IMG/VR virus record: IMGVR_UViG_2734482572_000009
DNA length: 4,509 nucleotides
Reading direction: 5' to 3' (one strand)
Source: a virus
Lineage: Duplodnaviria > Heunggongvirae > Uroviricota > Caudoviricetes
The notes under the pieces were generated by a model. That model saw nothing but the letters and a program-made list of their open reading frames with translations, ran no database searches and was not told where the DNA came from. This document shows positions 61 to 4,509 of this stretch, one piece after another. The position numbers were made by a program, and so were the translations under genes. The stretch's first letter is position 1. Every line of letters begins with the position of its first letter.

Positions 61-414
61 TTAAAAAAAGAACAAATGGTAGTGTCCGCTATTGCCAGTA
101 CACCTCAATTGCTCTGCGGCTTCGCTCAGAGCTGGCGTATGTTCCCGGCCTACTGATTCACACAGGTAATCAACGAAACCGGACACCAGTTTTCGTTCGC
201 GAGGCGTGATCGCCCCACCGACCGGAGTCCAGTAATCGAAACCCAGTTGCAGGAGTTTGAAAAAACGCTTGTGGAATGCGTAGTTACACACACGCTTAAA
301 GTCTGCGTGTATCCACTCACCTATTTTGATTTGATGCAGAAAATCGCAACTCTCCGGCGTCGCCGGGAGAAGTAATCCGGAAGAGGTTTGTTTGACCAGT
401 TGTATATGTGCCAT
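61..414 (-). CDS. hypothetical small prophage protein, about 117 aa from the ATG at 412-414; the ORF track extends it to a TTG at 454-456 (131 aa)
   Basis: Open frame ending at TAA 61-63. The ATG at 412-414 is preceded by GGAG about 7 nt upstream; the TTG at 456 overlaps the upstream stop (TTGA) but has no well-spaced SD. Protein is Cys/His/aromatic rich; no family recognised. Co-directional with and directly downstream of the 453..740 ORF. Confidence 0.5.
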   Translation of the reverse strand: MAHIQLVKQTSSGLLLPATPESCDFLHQIKIGEWIHADFKRVCNYAFHKRFFKLLQLGFDYWTPVGGAITPRERKLVSGFVDYLCESVGREHTPALSEAAEQLRCTGNSGHYHLFFF

Positions 415-452
415 CGGCTTTCTCCGGTGGCACGGTGTTACACAGCAGGAGT

Positions 453-740
453 TCAATCCTGCTCAAGATTGTAGATGAGTTTATTCTTCAGCAAAAGCAG
501 AAAACCAGCCTTAAAACCAATCTCTTTCAAAACCCGTAATGATGTGACAAATTCGTCCTCACGCAAAATAAAACCGTCCGTCAGAAGTCCATTACAAAAA
601 TAAAATAACACAGCACCGCTCTTCCTTTGTTGAGATTGCAAACATCTAATGCGGCAATGGCTGACAATCGCTCCATTCTCAACGCGCACAGCATAGAGGC
701 CATTTTCACTAAAAATTTCACGCAATTCTTCGATTTTCAT
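453..740 (-). CDS. hypothetical prophage protein, 95 aa
   Basis: ATG at 738-740 preceded by GGAAGGA about 8 nt upstream; stop TGA 453-455. Sits about 75 nt downstream of a sigma70-like promoter (822..849). No family recognised. Confidence 0.5.
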   Translation of the reverse strand: MKIEELREIFSENGLYAVRVENGAIVSHCRIRCLQSQQRKSGAVLFYFCNGLLTDGFILREDEFVTSLRVLKEIGFKAGFLLLLKNKLIYNLEQD

Positions 741-821
741 CTTCAGAATCCTTCCAGATAAATAGCTCTCCCCTGTTCGGGGTCCATCCCTCTTCTCCCT
801 GCGCGCTACTTAAGTGAGTCG

Positions 822-849
822 ATTCTATCTGCGAAGGTGCGCGAATCAA
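822..849 (-). promoter_or_regulatory. putative sigma70 promoter for the 453..740 / 61..414 cassette
   Basis: Minus-strand reading TTGATT (849-844), 16-nt spacer, TAGAAT (827-822). Lies just downstream of the hok terminator-like hairpin and about 75 nt upstream of the 740 start. Confidence 0.35.
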
Positions 850-865
850 ATTCACCGGAAATAAA

Positions 866-914
866 CAACAAAAAACCCGCCGAAACGCTGAGAGATCACA
901 GCGATGGGCGGGTT
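866..914 (-). terminator. putative intrinsic terminator at the 3' end of the hok transcript
   Basis: Minus-strand RNA: AACCCGCC, interrupted loop containing an inner CGCUG/CAGCG helix, GGCGGGUU, then UUUUUUGUUGUUU. GC-rich interrupted hairpin followed by a U-tract, about 80 nt past the hok stop. Confidence 0.4.
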
Positions 915-953
915 AAGTGCGGGTGCGTTGAGGATGCCTGACACATCAGAGGT

Positions 954-981
954 GGGCGGGGATGGGATCAGCTCCCCGCCC
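954..981 (-). other. GC-rich perfect stem-loop immediately 3' of hok (mRNA structural element, not a canonical terminator)
   Basis: GGGCGGGGA (954-962) and TCCCCGCCC (973-981) form a 9-bp perfect inverted repeat with a 10-nt loop. No U-tract follows on either strand. Position matches the 3' hairpin of plasmid R1 hok mRNA. Confidence 0.35.
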
Positions 982-989
982 GGTCACTC

Positions 990-1145
990 TTACTTCCTGG
1001 ATTCGTAGTCTACGAAGACAGCGACCTCCGTCTGGCCGGTTCGGATTCGTACCTCACAGAGGTCTTTCCTCGTTACCAGTGCCGTCACTATGACGGTTAA
1101 ACAGATGACGATCAGGGCGATTAACATCGCCTTTTGCTGCTTCAT
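990..1145 (-). CDS. hok: Hok/Gef family type I toxin (HokD/RelF-like small membrane peptide, 51 aa)
   Basis: Translation MKQQKAMLIALIVICLTVIVTALVTRKDLCEVRIRTGQTEVAVFVDYESRK: hydrophobic transmembrane segment plus conserved RKDLCEV and TGQTEVA motifs typical of Hok/Gef. AAGGAG SD about 9 nt upstream of the ATG at 1143-1145. The ORF track's 990..1202 is the same frame extended to an upstream ATG. Confidence 0.9.
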   Translation of the reverse strand: MKQQKAMLIALIVICLTVIVTALVTRKDLCEVRIRTGQTEVAVFVDYESRK

Positions 1146-1158
1146 AGCCTGCTTCTCC

Positions 1159-1187
1159 TTGCCTTTCGGCATGTAAGAGGCTAACCT
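1159..1187 (+). promoter_or_regulatory. putative sok promoter (antisense to hok leader)
   Basis: Plus-strand TTGCCT (1159-1164), 17-nt spacer ending GTAAGAGGC, TAACCT (1182-1187). Same architecture and position as the R1 sok promoter as I recall it (TTGCGC-N17-TATCCT). The -10 is weak as written. Confidence 0.3.
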
Positions 1188-1193
1188 ACATGT

Positions 1194-1266
1194 GCAAAGC
1201 ATGAAATTGGCCTCAGATTAATGTTAAGCGTCTTGCCGGACGCGTAATGTTAACTGGGGCTTTTCT
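1194..1266 (+). ncRNA. sok: putative Sok-like antisense RNA
   Basis: Antisense to the hok leader, covering the upstream in-frame ATG (1200-1202) and its GAGG SD. Ends in GGGGCTTTTCTCT, resembling the R1 Sok 3' end. Boundaries inferred, not measured. Confidence 0.35.
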
Positions 1267-1321
1267 CTATCTGCCTTTTGGTGTTCATGCCTGAAGCAGA
1301 TAGCCTCAAGCACCCGCAGTC

Positions 1322-1351
1322 ATTCTACTTACCTCGCCAATATGAAATCAA
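1322..1351 (-). promoter_or_regulatory. putative hok promoter
   Basis: Minus-strand TTGATT (1351-1346), 18-nt spacer, TAGAAT (1327-1322). Predicted TSS near 1315 gives a 5' end GGGUGCUUGAGGCUAUCUGC, close to the R1 hok mRNA 5' end (GGCGCUUGAGGCUUUCUGCC). Confidence 0.4.
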
Positions 1352-1372
1352 TCAGAAAGGTGCCCCATAAAA

Positions 1373-2059
1373 TCACTCCTTCTCTTCTTTACCGTAGTGG
1401 AGTTGACCAATTTTGATAAGAGGGCGTCCCTGAGATTTGCGGTGTAGATTGGTATCGCGCAGAGAATACACACAGCCACAATATTCCTGCTGATAGAATT
1501 TTTCGCGCTTGCTGATTTCAATCATACGGGACGAGCCGCCCTGCTTGCGCCAGTTATAATCCCAGTACACCATGCCCGGATAATGCGCGACGGCTCGCCG
1601 CCCACAGTCGTTAACCTGCTGCATATTTTTCCAGCGTGAAATGCCCAGTGAACTGCTGATCACACTGAAACCATTTTCAGCGGCGTACAGCGCTGTCCGC
1701 TCAAAACGCATGTCAAAACACATGGTGCAACGGATCCCTCGTTCGGGCTCCCATTCCATTCCTTTGGCTCGTTCAAACCAGTTGTCTGTGTCGTAATCAG
1801 CATCAATAAACGGCACGCCGTGTTGTTCAGCAAAGCGAATATTCTCATCCTTACGAATTAAATACTCTTTCTGAGGATGAATGTTCGGGTTGTAGAAAAA
1901 GATGGTGTAGTCGATTCCCGAGGCCTGAAGCGCCTCCATCACCTCACCGGAACATGGAGCACAGCAAGAGTGCAGTAGTAGTTTGTTTGCCCCGTTTGGG
2001 AGCTCCAATTTGGGCCGTTTGAAATCAGCAACTGTCATAAATATGTTTATTGGGGTCAT
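1373..2059 (-). CDS. queH: epoxyqueuosine reductase QueH homologue (DUF208 family), 228 aa
   Basis: Contains the motifs I associate with QueH: [11 protein letters not shown] near the N-terminus, [22 protein letters not shown], and C-terminal [15 protein letters not shown] at 2057-2059 with no obvious SD; alternative ATG at 2036-2038. The internal 1660..1848 ORF is an overlapping alternate-frame artefact. Confidence 0.8.
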
Positions 2060-2206
2060 AAAAATATCAAAGAGTGTAGCATTAGAACGGGGCTATCGGA
2101 AACAGATGTGTGACTGCTCCCCGCCCTTTCGGGTGGTCTCCTGATGATTTGAGGGTGCAGAAATCCCTCCGGTTAAGGATTAAATTTTTAACAGTGCTAA
2201 ATTTAA

Positions 2207-2620
2207 TTATTCAGTTCTGGATTTTGTCGCCCTGCGTATCCGCGCTTTCGCGTTACGCTCAATCTGTATCAGCTTTTCTATATTTCTCCGCCTTTCCTGT
2301 TCCTCCTGGCGCAATAGCCTTACATCATCTGCCAGTCTGGTTTCTCTTTTTGCCACAGAGAGCATCCAGTCAAACGGCTCCACAACCGCACCGCAGATTT
2401 TACAGCGGACCTGACGCTCTTTTTCGTCAACCCGTACAGAGGCGTGATGGCAATATGGTCTTTCCGATGGCTCATAAAGAAAATTAACCTGATTACGAGG
2501 GTCATCCTCTTTTACCGGAAATAAAACGATATTGCTTAACTCATCTTCTGGTTTTATTTCCATGCTCCTCTCCTTTGATGCGAATGCCAGCGGTAATTGA
2601 AGCCTGATAGCTAATTTCAT
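2207..2620 (-). CDS. small Cys/His-containing hypothetical protein with putative zinc-ribbon-like motif (137 aa; more likely 118 aa from the ATG at 2561-2563)
   Basis: ATG at 2618-2620 abuts the upstream stop (TGAATG). The internal ATG at 2561-2563 has a strong SD (AAGGAGAGGAGC, 6-nt spacing). Motif YCHH..(14)..CKIC followed by a basic, coiled-coil-like Arg/Glu-rich tail. No family recognised. Confidence 0.6.
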   Translation of the reverse strand: MKLAIRLQLPLAFASKERSMEIKPEDELSNIVLFPVKEDDPRNQVNFLYEPSERPYCHHASVRVDEKERQVRCKICGAVVEPFDWMLSVAKRETRLADDVRLLRQEEQERRRNIEKLIQIERNAKARIRRATKSRTE

Positions 2621-3043
2621 TCACAGTATCGCCTCCTGAAAATTACCCTGATAGAAAGCCAGTACACGCTGCATAGCTTCGCTCTTCCGGCACTCGCGAC
2701 AGATTATATTCAGGCGCCTGTCGTAGCGGCGTATTTCTCCGTCAGGTAATGACCAGATAAGGTCCGGATCAACAACAACCGGTTTCCTCACCTTTACTCT
2801 CGAGAGTTTTTTGCGGGCGCTTTGCCAGTCCTTGCGAGCCTGTTCAGACGGGAATAAGCCGTAGCCAGAATTATATACATCACCACTTGCGACCAGTTCT
2901 ATGCATAAGCGACCGACAGACGCACGACTGATACCTGTTTCATCTGACAACTGCCGAATCGTGACCCGACCGTCCTGATGCACGAGTTCCACAATTCGCG
3001 TCTTCAGTTCTTCCCGCTGTTCGGGAGTAAAAGGTTTCGCCAT
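2621..3043 (-). CDS. winged-helix HTH protein, tentatively Ren-like (lambda ren position), 140 aa
   Basis: ATG at 3041-3043 with AGGAGG SD 4 nt upstream, 14 nt after the DnaC-like stop. N-terminal HTH-like segment (VTIRQLSDETGISRASVGRLCIEL). The C-terminal CRECRKSEAMQRVLAFY resembles what I recall of the lambda Ren C-terminus, and the gene sits directly after the P-equivalent gene as ren does in lambda. Confidence 0.65.
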   Translation of the reverse strand: MAKPFTPEQREELKTRIVELVHQDGRVTIRQLSDETGISRASVGRLCIELVASGDVYNSGYGLFPSEQARKDWQSARKKLSRVKVRKPVVVDPDLIWSLPDGEIRRYDRRLNIICRECRKSEAMQRVLAFYQGNFQEAIL

Positions 3044-3057
3044 AAATCCTCCTGAAA

Positions 3058-3740
3058 CTACTTAACAACCCTCGAATGGCTAACATTCGGACGCCAGCTC
3101 TCCCAGTTAAAATTCACCCAGCGCCCGNNNNNNNNNNNNNNNNNNNNNNNNNNNNNNNNNNNNNNNNNNNNNNNNNNNNNNNNNNNNNNNNNNNNNNNNN
3201 NNNNNNNNNNNNNNNNNNNNNNNNNNNNNNNNNNNNNNNNNNNNNNNNNNNNNNNNNNNNNNNNNNNNNNNNNNNNNNNNNNNNNNNNNNNNNNNNNNNN
3301 NNNNNNNNNNNNNNNNNNNNNNNNNNNNNNNNNNNNNNNNNNNNNNNNNNNNNNNNNNNNNNNNNNNNNNNNNNNNNGATAGCTGCCGCTAAGTGATTCT
3401 TCCCGGTACCAGGTTTTCCGCTGAACGCAAAATTTGTACACCCGGTCATCAGTTCATCGGCGATGGATTTCGCCTGGCTTAACGCGTATCGCTGGCCGTC
3501 GTTCTGCACCTGGTAATTCGCAAACGAGCATTTACGGTGCAACGGCTGGATGCCTGAGCGATTCAGAATTTTTTCCACCCGCAACTGGCGATTCAGGCGG
3601 TTGATCTCCTCGCTACGTTTCTGGCCTTCAGCAAGTTGCCACTCGCGCCACTCCGCTACCGTTCTGAATGGGGCGGTTACATGTGGCGGGGTCAGTCGGC
3701 GGATGCGTTCCAGAACGCCGCCTGTCGCAATATTTTTCAT
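3058..3740 (-). CDS. DnaC-like replication protein / helicase loader (lambdoid prophage P-equivalent, YdaV-like), interrupted by assembly gap
   Basis: N-terminal 121 codons (3378-3740) align closely with E. coli DnaC through the Walker A motif FSGKPGTGKNHLAAAI. After the N-run, the C-terminal 22 codons (GRWVNFNWESWRPNVSHSRVVK, stop TAG 3058-3060) match the DnaC C-terminus (LWVIFNWDSY...). The frame differs across the gap, so the gap length is arbitrary. ATG at 3738-3740. Confidence 0.85.
3128..3377. other. assembly gap (250 N)
   Basis: Continuous run of N from 3128 to 3377 inside the DnaC-like gene. Confidence 0.97.
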
Positions 3741-3746
3741 GGTCCG

Positions 3747-4016
3747 TTACCCCCTGAAGCCTGGCGGGATCGCACTGTCCGGCAACGAGACGGTGTTAAC
3801 CTGTCGGAGCAACGTCTCAGGCCGAACACCTTTCGGCGCGAACAGGCCCTGGTATTCATTGGCGATGCTGTGTCGAATCACCTGCTCAGGTGTAAAACCC
3901 TGCTGACGGAATTTTTCCAGTTCCCGTATCGCCCCGTTAGCGCCCTGCTCCGTTCGAATCGGTTTTCGCAATGCCTGTCTGAACCGGACCCACTCATGCC
4001 AGAGTGTTTCCGGCAA
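3747..4016 (-). CDS. DnaT-like (primosomal protein I) C-terminal domain of a phage replication initiator; apparent frameshifted fragment, coding frame continues upstream to 4082 without a start codon
   Basis: C-terminus RQVNTVSLPDSAIPPGFRG closely matches the E. coli DnaT C-terminus ([20 protein letters not shown]); PDW.P motif also shared. The listed start is a TTG at 4014-4016, but the same frame stays open and protein-like (SPPRQKRASKKFEPEAIELPDW) up to a stop at 4083-4085 with no ATG/GTG/TTG. Stop TAA 3747-3749, 6 nt before the DnaC-like ATG. Confidence 0.7.
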   Translation of the reverse strand: MPETLWHEWVRFRQALRKPIRTEQGANGAIRELEKFRQQGFTPEQVIRHSIANEYQGLFAPKGVRPETLLRQVNTVSLPDSAIPPGFRG

Positions 4017-4094
4017 CCAATCGGGCAGCTCAATAGCCTCCGGCTCGAATTTTTTAGACGCTCGTTTTTGGCGAGGGGGAGATCAGTATTTAGA

Positions 4095-4115
4095 TCTTCC
4101 TCTTCCTCTTCCTCT
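4095..4115. repeat. tandem hexanucleotide repeat (TCTTCC)x3 plus TCT
   Basis: Plus strand 4095-4112 is TCTTCC three times. On the minus strand in the third frame it encodes EEEEEE(D), an acidic linker. Confidence 0.6.
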
Positions 4116-4185
4116 GGTAACGCTTTTTGATCCGTTTGTGTAACGCTGGCAGCGTTACCTTTTCGTTTCAGTTCGCGTATTTTTG

Positions 4186-4509
4186 TTACTCGCTCGTTTG
4201 TAACCGCCCGTTTTTTTTAGAGCTTTTTCCGTTATGACGTTCAAAGTTAGGTAGAGAAAGCCCTCCGTCATTTTCGACCAGCCATCCAACCTGAATTAAC
4301 GCATCAGCAAAACCAGACATAAAAGTGATGCGATCTATTGCACTTTTTGTAACGCCGCGAGCGTTACAATCTGCATTACCGTCTATCATTTGTTGATCCG
4401 CCCATGCCCAGAAGCGAATAACCTGAGGTAGCCTGAGTTTAACGGACACTCCTTCCTGAAATAGAATGGCATCAGAAGGAGCTAATAATGAGCAGAAAAA
4501 CCCAACGTT
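4186..4509 (-). CDS. N-terminal segment of the replication initiator (probably the same gene as 3747..4082 before frameshifting); 5' end beyond window
   Basis: Frame is open from the window edge (4509) to TAA at 4186-4188. The ORF track starts at GTG 4447-4449, but the adjacent GGAAGGA has no usable spacing, so the true start is probably outside the window. Ends ...NFERHNGKSSKKNGRLQTSE. No family recognised. Confidence 0.5.
   Translation of the reverse strand, partial: NVGFFCSLLAPSDAILFQEGVSVKLRLPQVIRFWAWADQQMIDGNADCNARGVTKSAIDRITFMSGFADALIQVGWLVENDGGLSLPNFERHNGKSSKKNGRLQTSE

Follow-up and report, generated by a model that had tools for sequence, protein, structure and literature searches.

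Do two small genes, one directly behind the other and both downstream of a helicase-loader gene, work as a pair? The question is raised by a window of 4,509 nucleotides, meaning the whole stretch of DNA that we analysed. Within positions 2207-3043, two open reading frames were confirmed on the minus strand, of 140 amino acids (3043..2621) and 137 amino acids (2620..2207). A preliminary description had tentatively taken the first for a Ren-like helix-turn-helix protein and the second for its possible zinc-binding partner.

Both small genes are real and already catalogued. The RefSeq DUF977 gene WP_001118169.1 has 99.8% DNA identity to the upstream gene and, for the downstream gene, PGAP calls a 357-nt CDS (WP_001343130.1). 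The two open reading frames have their home in a lambdoid prophage remnant of 4.3 kb, between two direct IS600 copies. Note that IS600 has replaced the upstream promoter region in the window. Hence, neither gene may be expressed here. The cargo genes QueH and hok/sok are neighbours in the window.

The upstream gene and lambda Ren

The features of this part of the locus are as follows.

3058..3740, minus strand: DnaC/YdaV-like helicase-loader gene, listed as context, with its stop codon at 3058-3060
2621..3043, minus strand, stop codon included: Ren-like/DUF977 protein of 140 amino acids (Pfam, phrog_142, hhalign)
2855..3025, minus strand: winged helix-turn-helix (wHTH) domain of the Ren-like protein, residues ~7-63 (AF2, Foldseek, Pfam HTH_24)
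2648..2710, minus strand: C-terminal Ren signature, residues 112-132, NIICRECRKSEAMQRVLAFYQ (BLASTP, DUF977 alignment)

The interior of the helicase-loader gene is N-masked at 3128-3377; this 250-nt run of N stands for 314 nt of a 99.8% identical copy, in which PGAP labels the loader 'ydaV ATP-binding protein'. As described previously, the Ren-like gene starts exactly 14 nt (3044-3057) after the loader stop codon (3060..3058).

The 140-residue protein matches Pfam DUF977 (PF06163) at 1.1e-33, with 116.5 bits against a gathering cut-off of 22.1, and its residues 1-136 align with positions 1-134 of the 134 in the model. This full-length PF06163 match is shared with YdaW of the Rac prophage and 'LygF' of Salmonella and E. 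coli prophages. Similarly, LygF- or DUF977-annotated proteins of Rac-like and Stx phages are 74-77% identical to the window protein. There is no difference of substance from DUF977/YdaW/LygF, and the window protein is a member.

Lambda Ren itself (NP_040633, 96 aa) is not picked up by the Pfam DUF977 model. The full-length family common to both proteins is phrog_142, 'Ren-like exclusion protein', which matches the 140-residue protein at 2.7e-44 and lambda Ren at 1.6e-41. In hhalign, the DUF977 alignment pairs with lambda Ren residues 5-93 at 95.5% probability (E 1.5e-8). The Ren assignment, offered as tentative in the preliminary description, is borne out by these matches and by the Ren position after the helicase loader. 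Both proteins combine an N-terminal wHTH with the C-terminal motif CRECRxSxAMxRVLAxY, written [CK]-E-C-R-x-S-x-A-M-x-R-V-L-A-x-Y for the comparison with Ren. The signature that contains it is invariant across DUF977 alignment A3 and, by BLASTP, 12 of 20 positions are identical to lambda Ren residues 73-92 (E 3e-7); AF2 confidence over the signature is just 62-69. In both cases the gene immediately follows that for the helicase loader. More widely, DUF977/Ren genes are found directly downstream of P (lambda), DnaC (DnaC/YdaV in the window) or O (vB_EcoS-640R1, ON470612). Phage vB_EcoS-640R1 has the zinc-ribbon gene as well.

The proteins also differ. Identity is only ~25%, and the window protein has 140 residues to the 96 of Ren. 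The additional ~30-45 residues separate the wHTH from the C-terminal motif, and comprise a basic helix (67-83) and a Pro/Asp-rich stretch; this basic linker helix is absent from lambda Ren. In addition, a CxxC of the window protein (C115, C118) corresponds to a single Cys in lambda Ren. For the N-terminal domain, AF2 predicts helices at 7-24, 29-36 and 40-53, and a beta-wing at 57-63, with pLDDT >90. Foldseek returns IclR/MarR/GntR/DtxR wHTH domains with probability ~1.0, yet with E values of 5e-3 or weaker; Pfam HTH_24 matches at 7e-6. The preliminary description had named Foldseek and profile comparisons as the check on both proteins. Both identify the upstream product as a wHTH protein, and the profiles place it in the Ren family. 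Profile searches place the zinc protein in no characterised family. We conclude that the 140-residue protein, to judge from its sequence, is a true relative of lambda Ren and a member of phrog_142.

What might such a protein do? Resistance to Rex exclusion, reportedly described by Toothman and Herskowitz in 1980, is a genetic phenotype, and is known for lambda only. PADLOC-DB searches with the DUF977 protein gave only weak, wHTH-type matches (E 1.7e-3 or weaker). The literature on LygF, DUF977, the accession numbers and the phrog identifier held nothing functional, and DUF977 was mentioned in passing. For lambda Ren, two-hybrid contacts with RexA and RexB have been reported, and the authors describe ren as 'likely involved in DNA replication' (preprint 10.1101/2021.04.19.439022). 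By extension from lambda, the upstream gene product may act via protein contacts at the replication/Rex interface, and not as a classical repressor. The gene itself travels with the replication module. Pfam DUF977 (YdaW/LygF) is now tied firmly to lambda Ren, a relationship missed by the Pfam model, so findings are transferable both ways.

The start of the downstream gene

Two further features concern the junction and the gene that follows.

2564..2620, minus strand: 57-nt spacer between the genes, with a non-conserved upstream ATG (2618-2620) and the Shine-Dalgarno sequence AAAGGAGAGGAGC (2564-2576)
2207..2563, minus strand, stop codon included: zinc-ribbon/long-helix protein of 118 amino acids, phrog_1621 (profile, PGAP, alignments A1 and A2)

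In the preliminary description, the genes were considered tightly coupled, since the stop codon of the first abuts the next ATG. The abutment is literal (TGA at 2623..2621, ATG at 2620..2618). However, translation of the downstream gene probably begins elsewhere than at this ATG, which makes coupling doubtful. Family members all begin at the codon equivalent to M20 of the 137-residue frame, and no homologue from another context or genus has the 19 extra residues. The phrog_1621 match (5.1e-56) aligns residues 20-136 of the 137-residue frame with positions 1-120 of the 134 in the profile. Where the upstream neighbour is different, homology to the window starts only ~20-40 nt before M20. Among 15 DUF977-adjacent junction haplotypes, the codon at -57 is ATG in 1, GTG in 10 and GTA, a non-start codon, in 4. 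The M20 ATG is invariant in the same haplotypes, and the Shine-Dalgarno sequence persists, altered by single-base changes in four of them.

Could the 137-residue form still be a real product, made from the ATG abutting the DUF977 stop codon by termination-reinitiation coupling? That ATG, at 2620, is right after the TGA and has AGGAGG 11 nt upstream. The long version is given in some phage annotations and chosen by some gene callers, and GTG occupies -57 in 10 of the 15 haplotypes. Set against these points are the extension missing from all homologues elsewhere, the PHROG profile and PGAP call that both start at M20, the GTA codon in 4 haplotypes, and the invariant M20 ATG with its optimally spaced AAGGAG. 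We think the longer product quite improbable. The 57-nt spacer yielded no stable fold when searched for an RNA element (z = +1.1). Similarly, no RNA element, promoter or terminator was found in the spacer or its flanks, nor any promoter- or terminator-like site on the minus strand of the spacer.

We conclude that the downstream gene most likely starts 57 nt beyond the TGAATG and would encode 118 amino acids (2563..2207), a correction from 137. The likely layout is stop codon, 57-nt spacer, strong Shine-Dalgarno sequence and then ATG. The stop/start abutment is read as a coincidence of one allele.

Association between the two genes

If the Ren-like protein has a dedicated zinc-binding partner, as had been proposed, the genes should be found together. 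Mostly, they travel separately when the content of this slot is compared across prophages. Counting by record, the phage collection has 22 records with the zinc-ribbon gene, 25 with DUF977 and only 4 with both; 18 of the 22 have the zinc-ribbon gene without DUF977. Among complete E. coli genomes, again counted by record, 1,679 carry the zinc-ribbon gene, and 960 of these (~57%) have the DUF977-zinc gene junction. DUF977-like sequence occurs at 5,014 places in 3,617 complete E. coli genomes (about two thirds), mostly with no zinc-ribbon gene after it. Among 80 IMG/VR loci, the genes are adjacent in 41 and separated in 28, and DUF977 is absent from 11.

Other neighbours are common. The zinc-ribbon gene follows ead/Ea22, in the other early operon, in ArgO145 and other Stx2a phages, and it is also found after DUF4406. 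At 15 loci from other genera, none of which has DUF977 directly upstream, the upstream neighbour is NinG, RusA, YbcO or HNH in 13 and an unclassified open reading frame in two. The antiterminator gene Q, which belongs to three unrelated families, is downstream in all but one of these loci. More distant family members have a nin-region or early-region context. The alleles tell a similar story: zinc-ribbon genes that are 98-100% identical sit beside DUF977 alleles that are just 55-100% identical. Hence, there is no signal of co-evolution.

The possibility that a Ren-like protein is fused to the zinc-binding partner had also been raised. Database entries that appear fused (P0040, P0042, P0060, P0002, P0122) were considered as a Rosetta stone and rejected, since they are recombinant hybrids and not domain fusions. 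Those involving DUF977 are deletion hybrids, which join the N-terminal half of the zinc-ribbon protein to the C-terminal half of DUF977 and lack the helix or the wHTH. Those involving Ea22 are in-frame run-ons at a mosaic joint.

Note that a dedicated and translationally coupled module, anti-exclusion or regulatory, in which the zinc-ribbon protein is the partner of Ren, would account for some observations. These are the literal TGAATG of the window allele, the side-by-side arrangement at 41 of the 80 IMG/VR loci and in 960 E. coli genomes, and the spacer, which is kept even beside divergent DUF977 alleles. Conversely, the abutting start is not conserved (GTA in 4 of 15) and is outside the family-wide N-terminus. 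Furthermore, most DUF977 genes have no zinc-ribbon gene after them, 18 of 22 zinc-gene phage records have no DUF977, and the gene follows Ea22, DUF4406, NinG, RusA, YbcO and HNH genes elsewhere. Finally, the alleles do not co-vary and the 'fusions' are truncated recombinants. We rate such a module as very improbable and, in its obligate form, already largely refuted. We conclude that the two genes are independent, and do not form a dedicated or obligate pair of Ren and zinc partner. Since the genes are often adjacent in E. coli (57%), with conservation of the 57-nt spacer between them, a lineage-specific functional link may still exist there.

The zinc-ribbon protein and its possible role

Three parts of the 118-residue protein were delimited (118-aa numbering throughout).

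2516..2548, minus strand: short N-terminal motif, residues 6-16, EDELSNIVLFP, in an acidic, low-confidence tail (A2 alignment)
2378..2452, minus strand: zinc ribbon, residues 38-62, C38-x-H40-x13-C54-x2-C57 followed by a DPFD-type cap (conservation, AF2)
2213..2377, minus strand: long amphipathic helix that spans residues 63-117 and ends in a basic, near-invariant stretch, NIEKLIQIERNAKARIRR (AF2, conservation)

The tail has pLDDT ~56, and residues 1-37 carry a net charge of -5. Its motif has the family consensus E-L-x-N-V-V-x-F-P (NVVxFP). In alignment A2, E6, F15 and P16 are invariant, and E8, L9 and N11 are at least 90% conserved. Distant members have similar acidic and N-[VI]-[VI]-x-[FL] strings near the N-terminus. 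We rejected a beta-clamp-binding reading of NIVLF, given that position 4 of that motif is variable in the family.

In the ribbon, the predicted metal ligands are C38, H40, C54 and C57. Conservation among 127 representatives is 0.99 for C38, 0.92 for H40 (Cys in 6%), 0.98 for both C54 and C57, and 0.94 for R50; of the two His in 'CHH', the first is not conserved. AF2 places strands at 43-46 and 51-54 with moderate confidence (ribbon pLDDT 72-76). The YCHH..CKIC motif and long, basic, Arg/Glu-rich helix of the preliminary description are both present, and AF2 models the latter as a single helix (63-117). Here, pLDDT is 82-96 over the C-terminal 40 residues and 93-96 over 81-110, although pTM for the whole monomer is 0.40. 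The helix has a heptad-like hydrophobic seam, and residues 94-118 carry a charge of +5. Family-wide conservation is 0.91 for L98, 0.83 for E102, 0.89 for N104, 0.82 for K106 and 0.91 for R108, within a near-invariant end, ERNAKARIRR. By eye, a bZIP-like reading of this end was rejected: the N/A/R spacing departs from that of the bZIP basic region, and the basic part comes after the zipper. With four conserved Cys/His ligands, and two knuckles on predicted beta-hairpins, the protein is assigned to the zinc-ribbon class.

The family is large, with 1,621 representative clusters (50% identity) at E<=1e-3. That the protein resembles nothing recognised, as stated previously, agrees with our searches of PDB, Pfam, NCBIfam and PADLOC, which found no characterised homologue. 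Briefly, Pfam, NCBIfam and PADLOC models were compared with the window protein and with six to ten of its distant relatives, and gave no family. PDB sequence and profile searches with the family also gave none, the profile search being empty at E<=10. An alignment of distant members retrieved only entries named 'hypothetical protein', with no Pfam domains, informative names or fusions.

One specific reading is that the ribbon is a primase-type CHC2 finger, like the zinc-binding domain of DnaG, in a ssDNA-recognising replication accessory linked to the helicase loader. The CxH...CxxC ligand set resembles CHC2 and, in hhalign, A2 aligns with the E. coli DnaG N-terminus over residues 41-84 at 66-70% probability. 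However, with the broad alignment DnaG scores 53%, against 74% for TFB and 69% for S27e. Pfam zf-CHC2 has no match at E<=0.1, the first knuckle is CxH where DnaG has CxxH, and the gene is mostly not found beside replication genes. DnaG zinc-binding-domain structures are deposited in the PDB, all sequences of which were covered by the empty profile search. A CHC2 finger is exceedingly improbable.

We consider it reasonably probable that these are two independent accessory genes of a rightward early operon, in a Rac/lambda-like prophage, and that the downstream gene is a mobile adaptor cassette. It would be free-standing, with its own Shine-Dalgarno sequence and 118-residue frame. The predicted product has an acidic disordered tail, a CHCC zinc ribbon and a helix of ~55 residues, the heptad seam of which suggests a parallel coiled-coil oligomer. 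The basic helix end would present an invariant face, E-R-N-x-K-x-R. Our committed guess is an oligomeric adaptor, with the ribbon and basic helix end binding nucleic acid, that may work in early DNA transactions such as replication, recombination or junction processing. The gene has a fixed place at loci from other genera, the lambda NinH position, with the junction-nuclease slot (NinG/RusA/YbcO) on one side and Q on the other. In E. coli and Shigella, its position beside Ren would stem from a common hot spot for insertion between ren and ninB.

The nucleic-acid-binding role is a guess from architecture, charge distribution and neighbourhood, and a protein target would explain just as well why polar helix residues are so extremely conserved. 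Hence, we also considered a protein-binding factor for host takeover or counter-defence, with the helix face and NVVxFP docking on a conserved host machine or defence protein that is inhibited or redirected. E102, N104, K106 and R108 are polar yet near-invariant across phyla, and the disordered acidic tail has a short conserved linear motif. The gene also has a moron-like mobility among early-operon slots, including the exo-xis/Ea22 region, and cargo genes as neighbours in the window. Conversely, no PADLOC model or named anti-defence family was matched and relatives have no informative domain fusions or names. Moreover, the fixed nuclease-Q position in other genera resembles the core nin region, rather than a variable counter-defence island. 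On balance, we see a takeover factor as somewhat unlikely. A bolder version is doubtful: that these are cross-phylum phage early proteins with a single conserved target, engaged via the E-R-N-x-K-x-R face and NVVxFP. They could, for example, be a new takeover or counter-defence class directed at a universal machine for replication, recombination or transcription, and might also cooperate with the Ren family in E. coli.

The value of these results is mostly housekeeping, and no new system or mechanism is opened. Even so, phrog_1621 and its relatives are very widespread, sharply conserved and have no curated model. They are candidates for a new Pfam entry and for accessory-gene screens.

Returning to the adaptor that we favour, how does it compare with known systems? 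It shares a two-knuckle, four-ligand ribbon, with short beta-hairpins, with TFIIB/TFB (PF08271) and S27e. Profile similarity to these generic ribbons is weak: Pfam Zn_Ribbon_TF (TFIIB-type) is below threshold (21.1 bits against a gathering cut-off of 29; 2.2e-4), S27e (1qxf) has an E value of 0.55, and hhalign gives 69-74%. The generic ribbons are C4 rather than CHCC, and neither TFB nor S27e has an acidic tail before the ribbon and a 55-residue helix after it. DksA/TraR and YabA are also small, and pair a four-ligand zinc module with an extended helical or coiled-coil part. There is no significant sequence match (YabA weakly matches one distant family member only, E 0.059) and the helix of the window protein is single rather than folded into a hairpin. 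The domain order is also opposite, with the zinc module C-terminal in DksA/TraR and YabA. NinH, a small Fis-like DNA-binding nin protein, has no detected sequence or fold relationship with the zinc-ribbon protein. Rather, it is a positional analogue: both proteins are small and basic at one end, and the nuclease-Q slot of the zinc-ribbon gene in other genera is the place of ninH/ninI in lambda.

Gene order in the prophage remnant

The window begins and ends with the two termini of IS600, an IS3 family element (positions 1-107 and 4424-4509, 100% identity, same orientation). Hence, the DNA between is a 4.3-kb prophage remnant flanked by direct IS600 copies. The joints truncate a NinB-like DUF1367 gene and a YdaU-like initiator gene, and the promoter-proximal region is absent. 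Positions 108-3127 match a Rac-like prophage of E. coli FDAARGOS_943 at 99.8% identity. The minus strand carries every gene.

Features of the remnant, in order of transcription
cut at about 4424, minus strand: YdaU-like replication initiator (first)
3740..3058, minus strand: DnaC/YdaV-like helicase loader, partly N-masked
3043..2621, minus strand: 140-aa ORF (gene 1)
2620 or 2563..2207, minus strand: second ORF (gene 2)
start 2038 (PGAP) or 2059 (ORF list), end 1373, minus strand: QueH
about 990-1315, minus strand: hok/sok
740..453, minus strand: phrog_340 ORF
cut at about 108, minus strand: DUF1367/NinB-like gene (last)

The helicase loader gene has an apparent frame break because a 250-nt run of Ns (3128-3377) takes the place of 314 nt in the near-identical copy from E. 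coli. The break is a masking artefact, or reflects the 64-nt length difference. Further upstream, positions 3378-4424 and the reference copy are only 98.2% identical, and their alignment opens 4 gaps. The initiator is split into two ORFs in different frames (4449..4186 and 4016..3747), and this region is probably a pseudogene.

Start of the second gene

The preliminary description placed the two genes at 2207-3043, and gave a 14-nt gap after the DnaC-like stop, an abutting TGAATG, and YCHH..CKIC with an Arg/Glu-rich segment in the second protein. These features and coordinates are right: the DnaC-like stop is at 3060..3058, 14 nt before the 140-aa start, and TGA-ATG is at 2623..2618. Tight coupling of the two genes, via the abutting ATG, did not hold up. 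On comparative grounds, the ATG at 2620 is probably not the start codon. Rather, the codon equivalent to Met20 of the 137-aa ORF, which is codon 1 of a 118-aa form, comes first in all family alignments (a dozen enterobacterial genera). The phrog_1621 profile starts at the same residue, and PGAP annotates a 357-nt CDS. Among 15 distinct junction haplotypes where the gene adjoins DUF977, the Met20 ATG is the same in all; the codon 57 nt upstream is ATG in one, GTG in 10 and GTA in four. We conclude that a 57-nt spacer separates the two genes. The Shine-Dalgarno sequence AAAGGAGAGGAGC before Met20 is kept, with single-base changes in 4 of the 15 haplotypes. Where the upstream neighbour differs, similarity to the window begins only about 20-40 nt before Met20.

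The spacer (2564-2620) has no predicted RNA structure (z = +1.1), and no promoter-like or terminator-like site was found on the gene strand. Upstream of gene 2 in loci L032-L105, it is almost invariant, even beside a DUF977 allele only 55% identical. Hence, a recombination joint is located within DUF977 or at its 3' end.

Distribution of the two genes

The two genes had been proposed to form a Ren-like and zinc-binding pair, perhaps with an anti-exclusion role. Phage collection records do not support this: gene 2 is in 22 and DUF977 in 25, with both in only four, adjacent in three of these. Among 80 IMG/VR loci, all with a gene 2 at least 97% identical, DUF977 is directly upstream in 41. Intervening genes (DUF4406, Ea22 and others) occur in 28, and 11 have no DUF977 in the available flank. 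Identity of the adjoining DUF977 alleles spans 55% to 100%. Record-level counts for 5,426 complete E. coli genomes put gene 2 in 1,679 genomes (2,135 places) and DUF977-like DNA in 3,617 (5,014 places); a junction-spanning 257-nt probe matched 960 at a coverage of at least 80%. Other arrangements include DUF977-DUF4406-Ea22-gene 2 in E. coli VL40, and gene 2 after ead/Ea22, in the leftward early region, in ArgO145 and Stx2a phages. A more distant member, in a lambda-like prophage, is flanked by an MT-A70 methylase and RusA. This evidence, drawn from genome comparison, says that the genes are not a pair, at least not obligately.

Database 'fusions' (proteins P0040, P0042, P0060, P0002 and P0122) were rejected as domain fusions; they are recombinant hybrids. 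In some, the DUF977 C-half is joined to the zinc-ribbon N-half. Others are Ea22-like proteins that continue in frame into the zinc-ribbon protein. Such ORFs indicate frequent illegitimate or homologous exchange at mosaic joints.

Outside Escherichia (15 loci, within L012-L027, with the match at about position 6001), DUF977 is never directly upstream of gene 2, and a Ren-like gene occurs once, two genes away. The upstream gene encodes NinG, RusA, YbcO or HNH in 13 of the 15, often with an ATGA overlap, and is an unclassified ORF in two. Directly downstream is a Q antiterminator (14/15), from three unrelated families (PF06323, PF06530 and PF03589). We conclude that gene 2 is a self-contained mobile cassette, of Shine-Dalgarno sequence plus ORF, from a large uncharacterised family.

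For E. coli and Shigella, the cassette would have been inserted between ren and ninB. This interval appears to be a hot spot for cargo, since in the window it also holds QueH and hok/sok. QueH is an epoxyqueuosine reductase (1373-2059, minus strand; PF02677, 1.9e-65; phrog_3217, 'unknown function'), lying as cargo within the nin region, with the zinc-ribbon gene on one side and hok on the other. A queuosine-pathway enzyme alone in a lambdoid prophage is unusual. The hok/sok type I toxin-antitoxin module (990-1315, minus strand) is complete, with a Hok/Gef ORF (PF01848) and an Rfam match to sok at 1140-1315 (117 bits).

E. coli-type copies of gene 2, with 95-97% identity, also occur in a Collinsella sp. 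MAG contig (L011) and a 233-bp contig of Ursidibacter maritimus (L016). The taxa are unrelated, and contamination or mis-binning of contigs is the most likely source.

Identity and possible function of the two proteins

Each protein has a RefSeq entry with at least 99% identity, named 'DUF977 family protein' and 'hypothetical protein', respectively; the second protein is uncharacterised. These are two real genes, of families already catalogued. Overall, this account is probably right, chiefly as to the identity and independence of the genes. What remains of value is how widespread and how sharply conserved the zinc-ribbon family is.

The 118-aa protein belongs to phrog_1621 (unknown function) and to no family in Pfam, NCBIfam or PADLOC. 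Close relatives are found in Escherichia, Shigella, Salmonella, Klebsiella, Kluyvera, Yokenella, Erwinia, Serratia, Pluralibacter, Yersinia and Morganella. Searching 1.84 billion representatives by profile gave 1,621 clusters with E<=1e-3 and 276 with E<=1e-10; the composition of some suggests high-GC and low-GC hosts. The core across 127 representatives is C38-x-H40 (Cys for His in 6%), R50, C54-x2-C57, a DPFD cap and helix residues L84, E87, L98, E102, N104, K106, A107 and R108. An E-L-x-N-V-V-x-F-P motif is conserved in the tail, with similar strings in distant members. In the AF2 model (mean pLDDT 74.6), an acidic tail of low confidence precedes a small ribbon of two strands, and residues 63-117 form a single uninterrupted helix (pLDDT up to 96). 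V81, L84, I95, L98, I109 and A112 make up a heptad-like seam along the helix, in which some core positions have a conserved Glu. Residues 1-37 carry a net charge of -5, and residues 94-118 one of +5. Fold searches were uninformative, and an hhalign similarity to the CHC2 finger of DnaG (66-70% probability) vanished with controls.

The ribbon, the probable coiled coil, the invariant basic end of the helix and the acidic tail, together with the gene's usual place after a junction nuclease and before Q, favour a nucleic-acid-binding accessory. Tentatively, the protein might act in this way, as an oligomer, in early DNA transactions. A close second, in itself unlikely, is a protein-targeting takeover or counter-defence factor.

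For the 140-aa protein, the tentative Ren assignment proved correct at family level. It matches Pfam DUF977 over its full length (116.5 bits) and phrog_142, 'Ren-like exclusion protein' (2.7e-44). Lambda Ren (from NC_001416) also matches phrog_142 (1.6e-41), and has no match to Pfam DUF977. BLASTP aligned the two proteins over a C-terminal motif only (12/20 identical). Ren residues 5-93 align to a DUF977 profile, of 42 sequences from the fetched loci, with 95.5% probability. The AF2 model (mean pLDDT 77.6) comprises a winged helix (7-63, pLDDT above 90), a basic helix (67-83) and a low-confidence C-terminal part bearing the Ren motif. Foldseek matched only IclR/MarR/GntR/DtxR-type wHTH domains. 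Previously, ren was described as 'likely involved in DNA replication', and two-hybrid assays had both Ren and O contacting Rex proteins (10.1101/2021.04.19.439022). Ren is dispensable for P-lethality or replicative killing (PMC3640518). We conclude that gene 1 encodes a homologue of Ren, linked to the replication module. Compared with lambda Ren, it is a long form, with about 30-45 extra residues.
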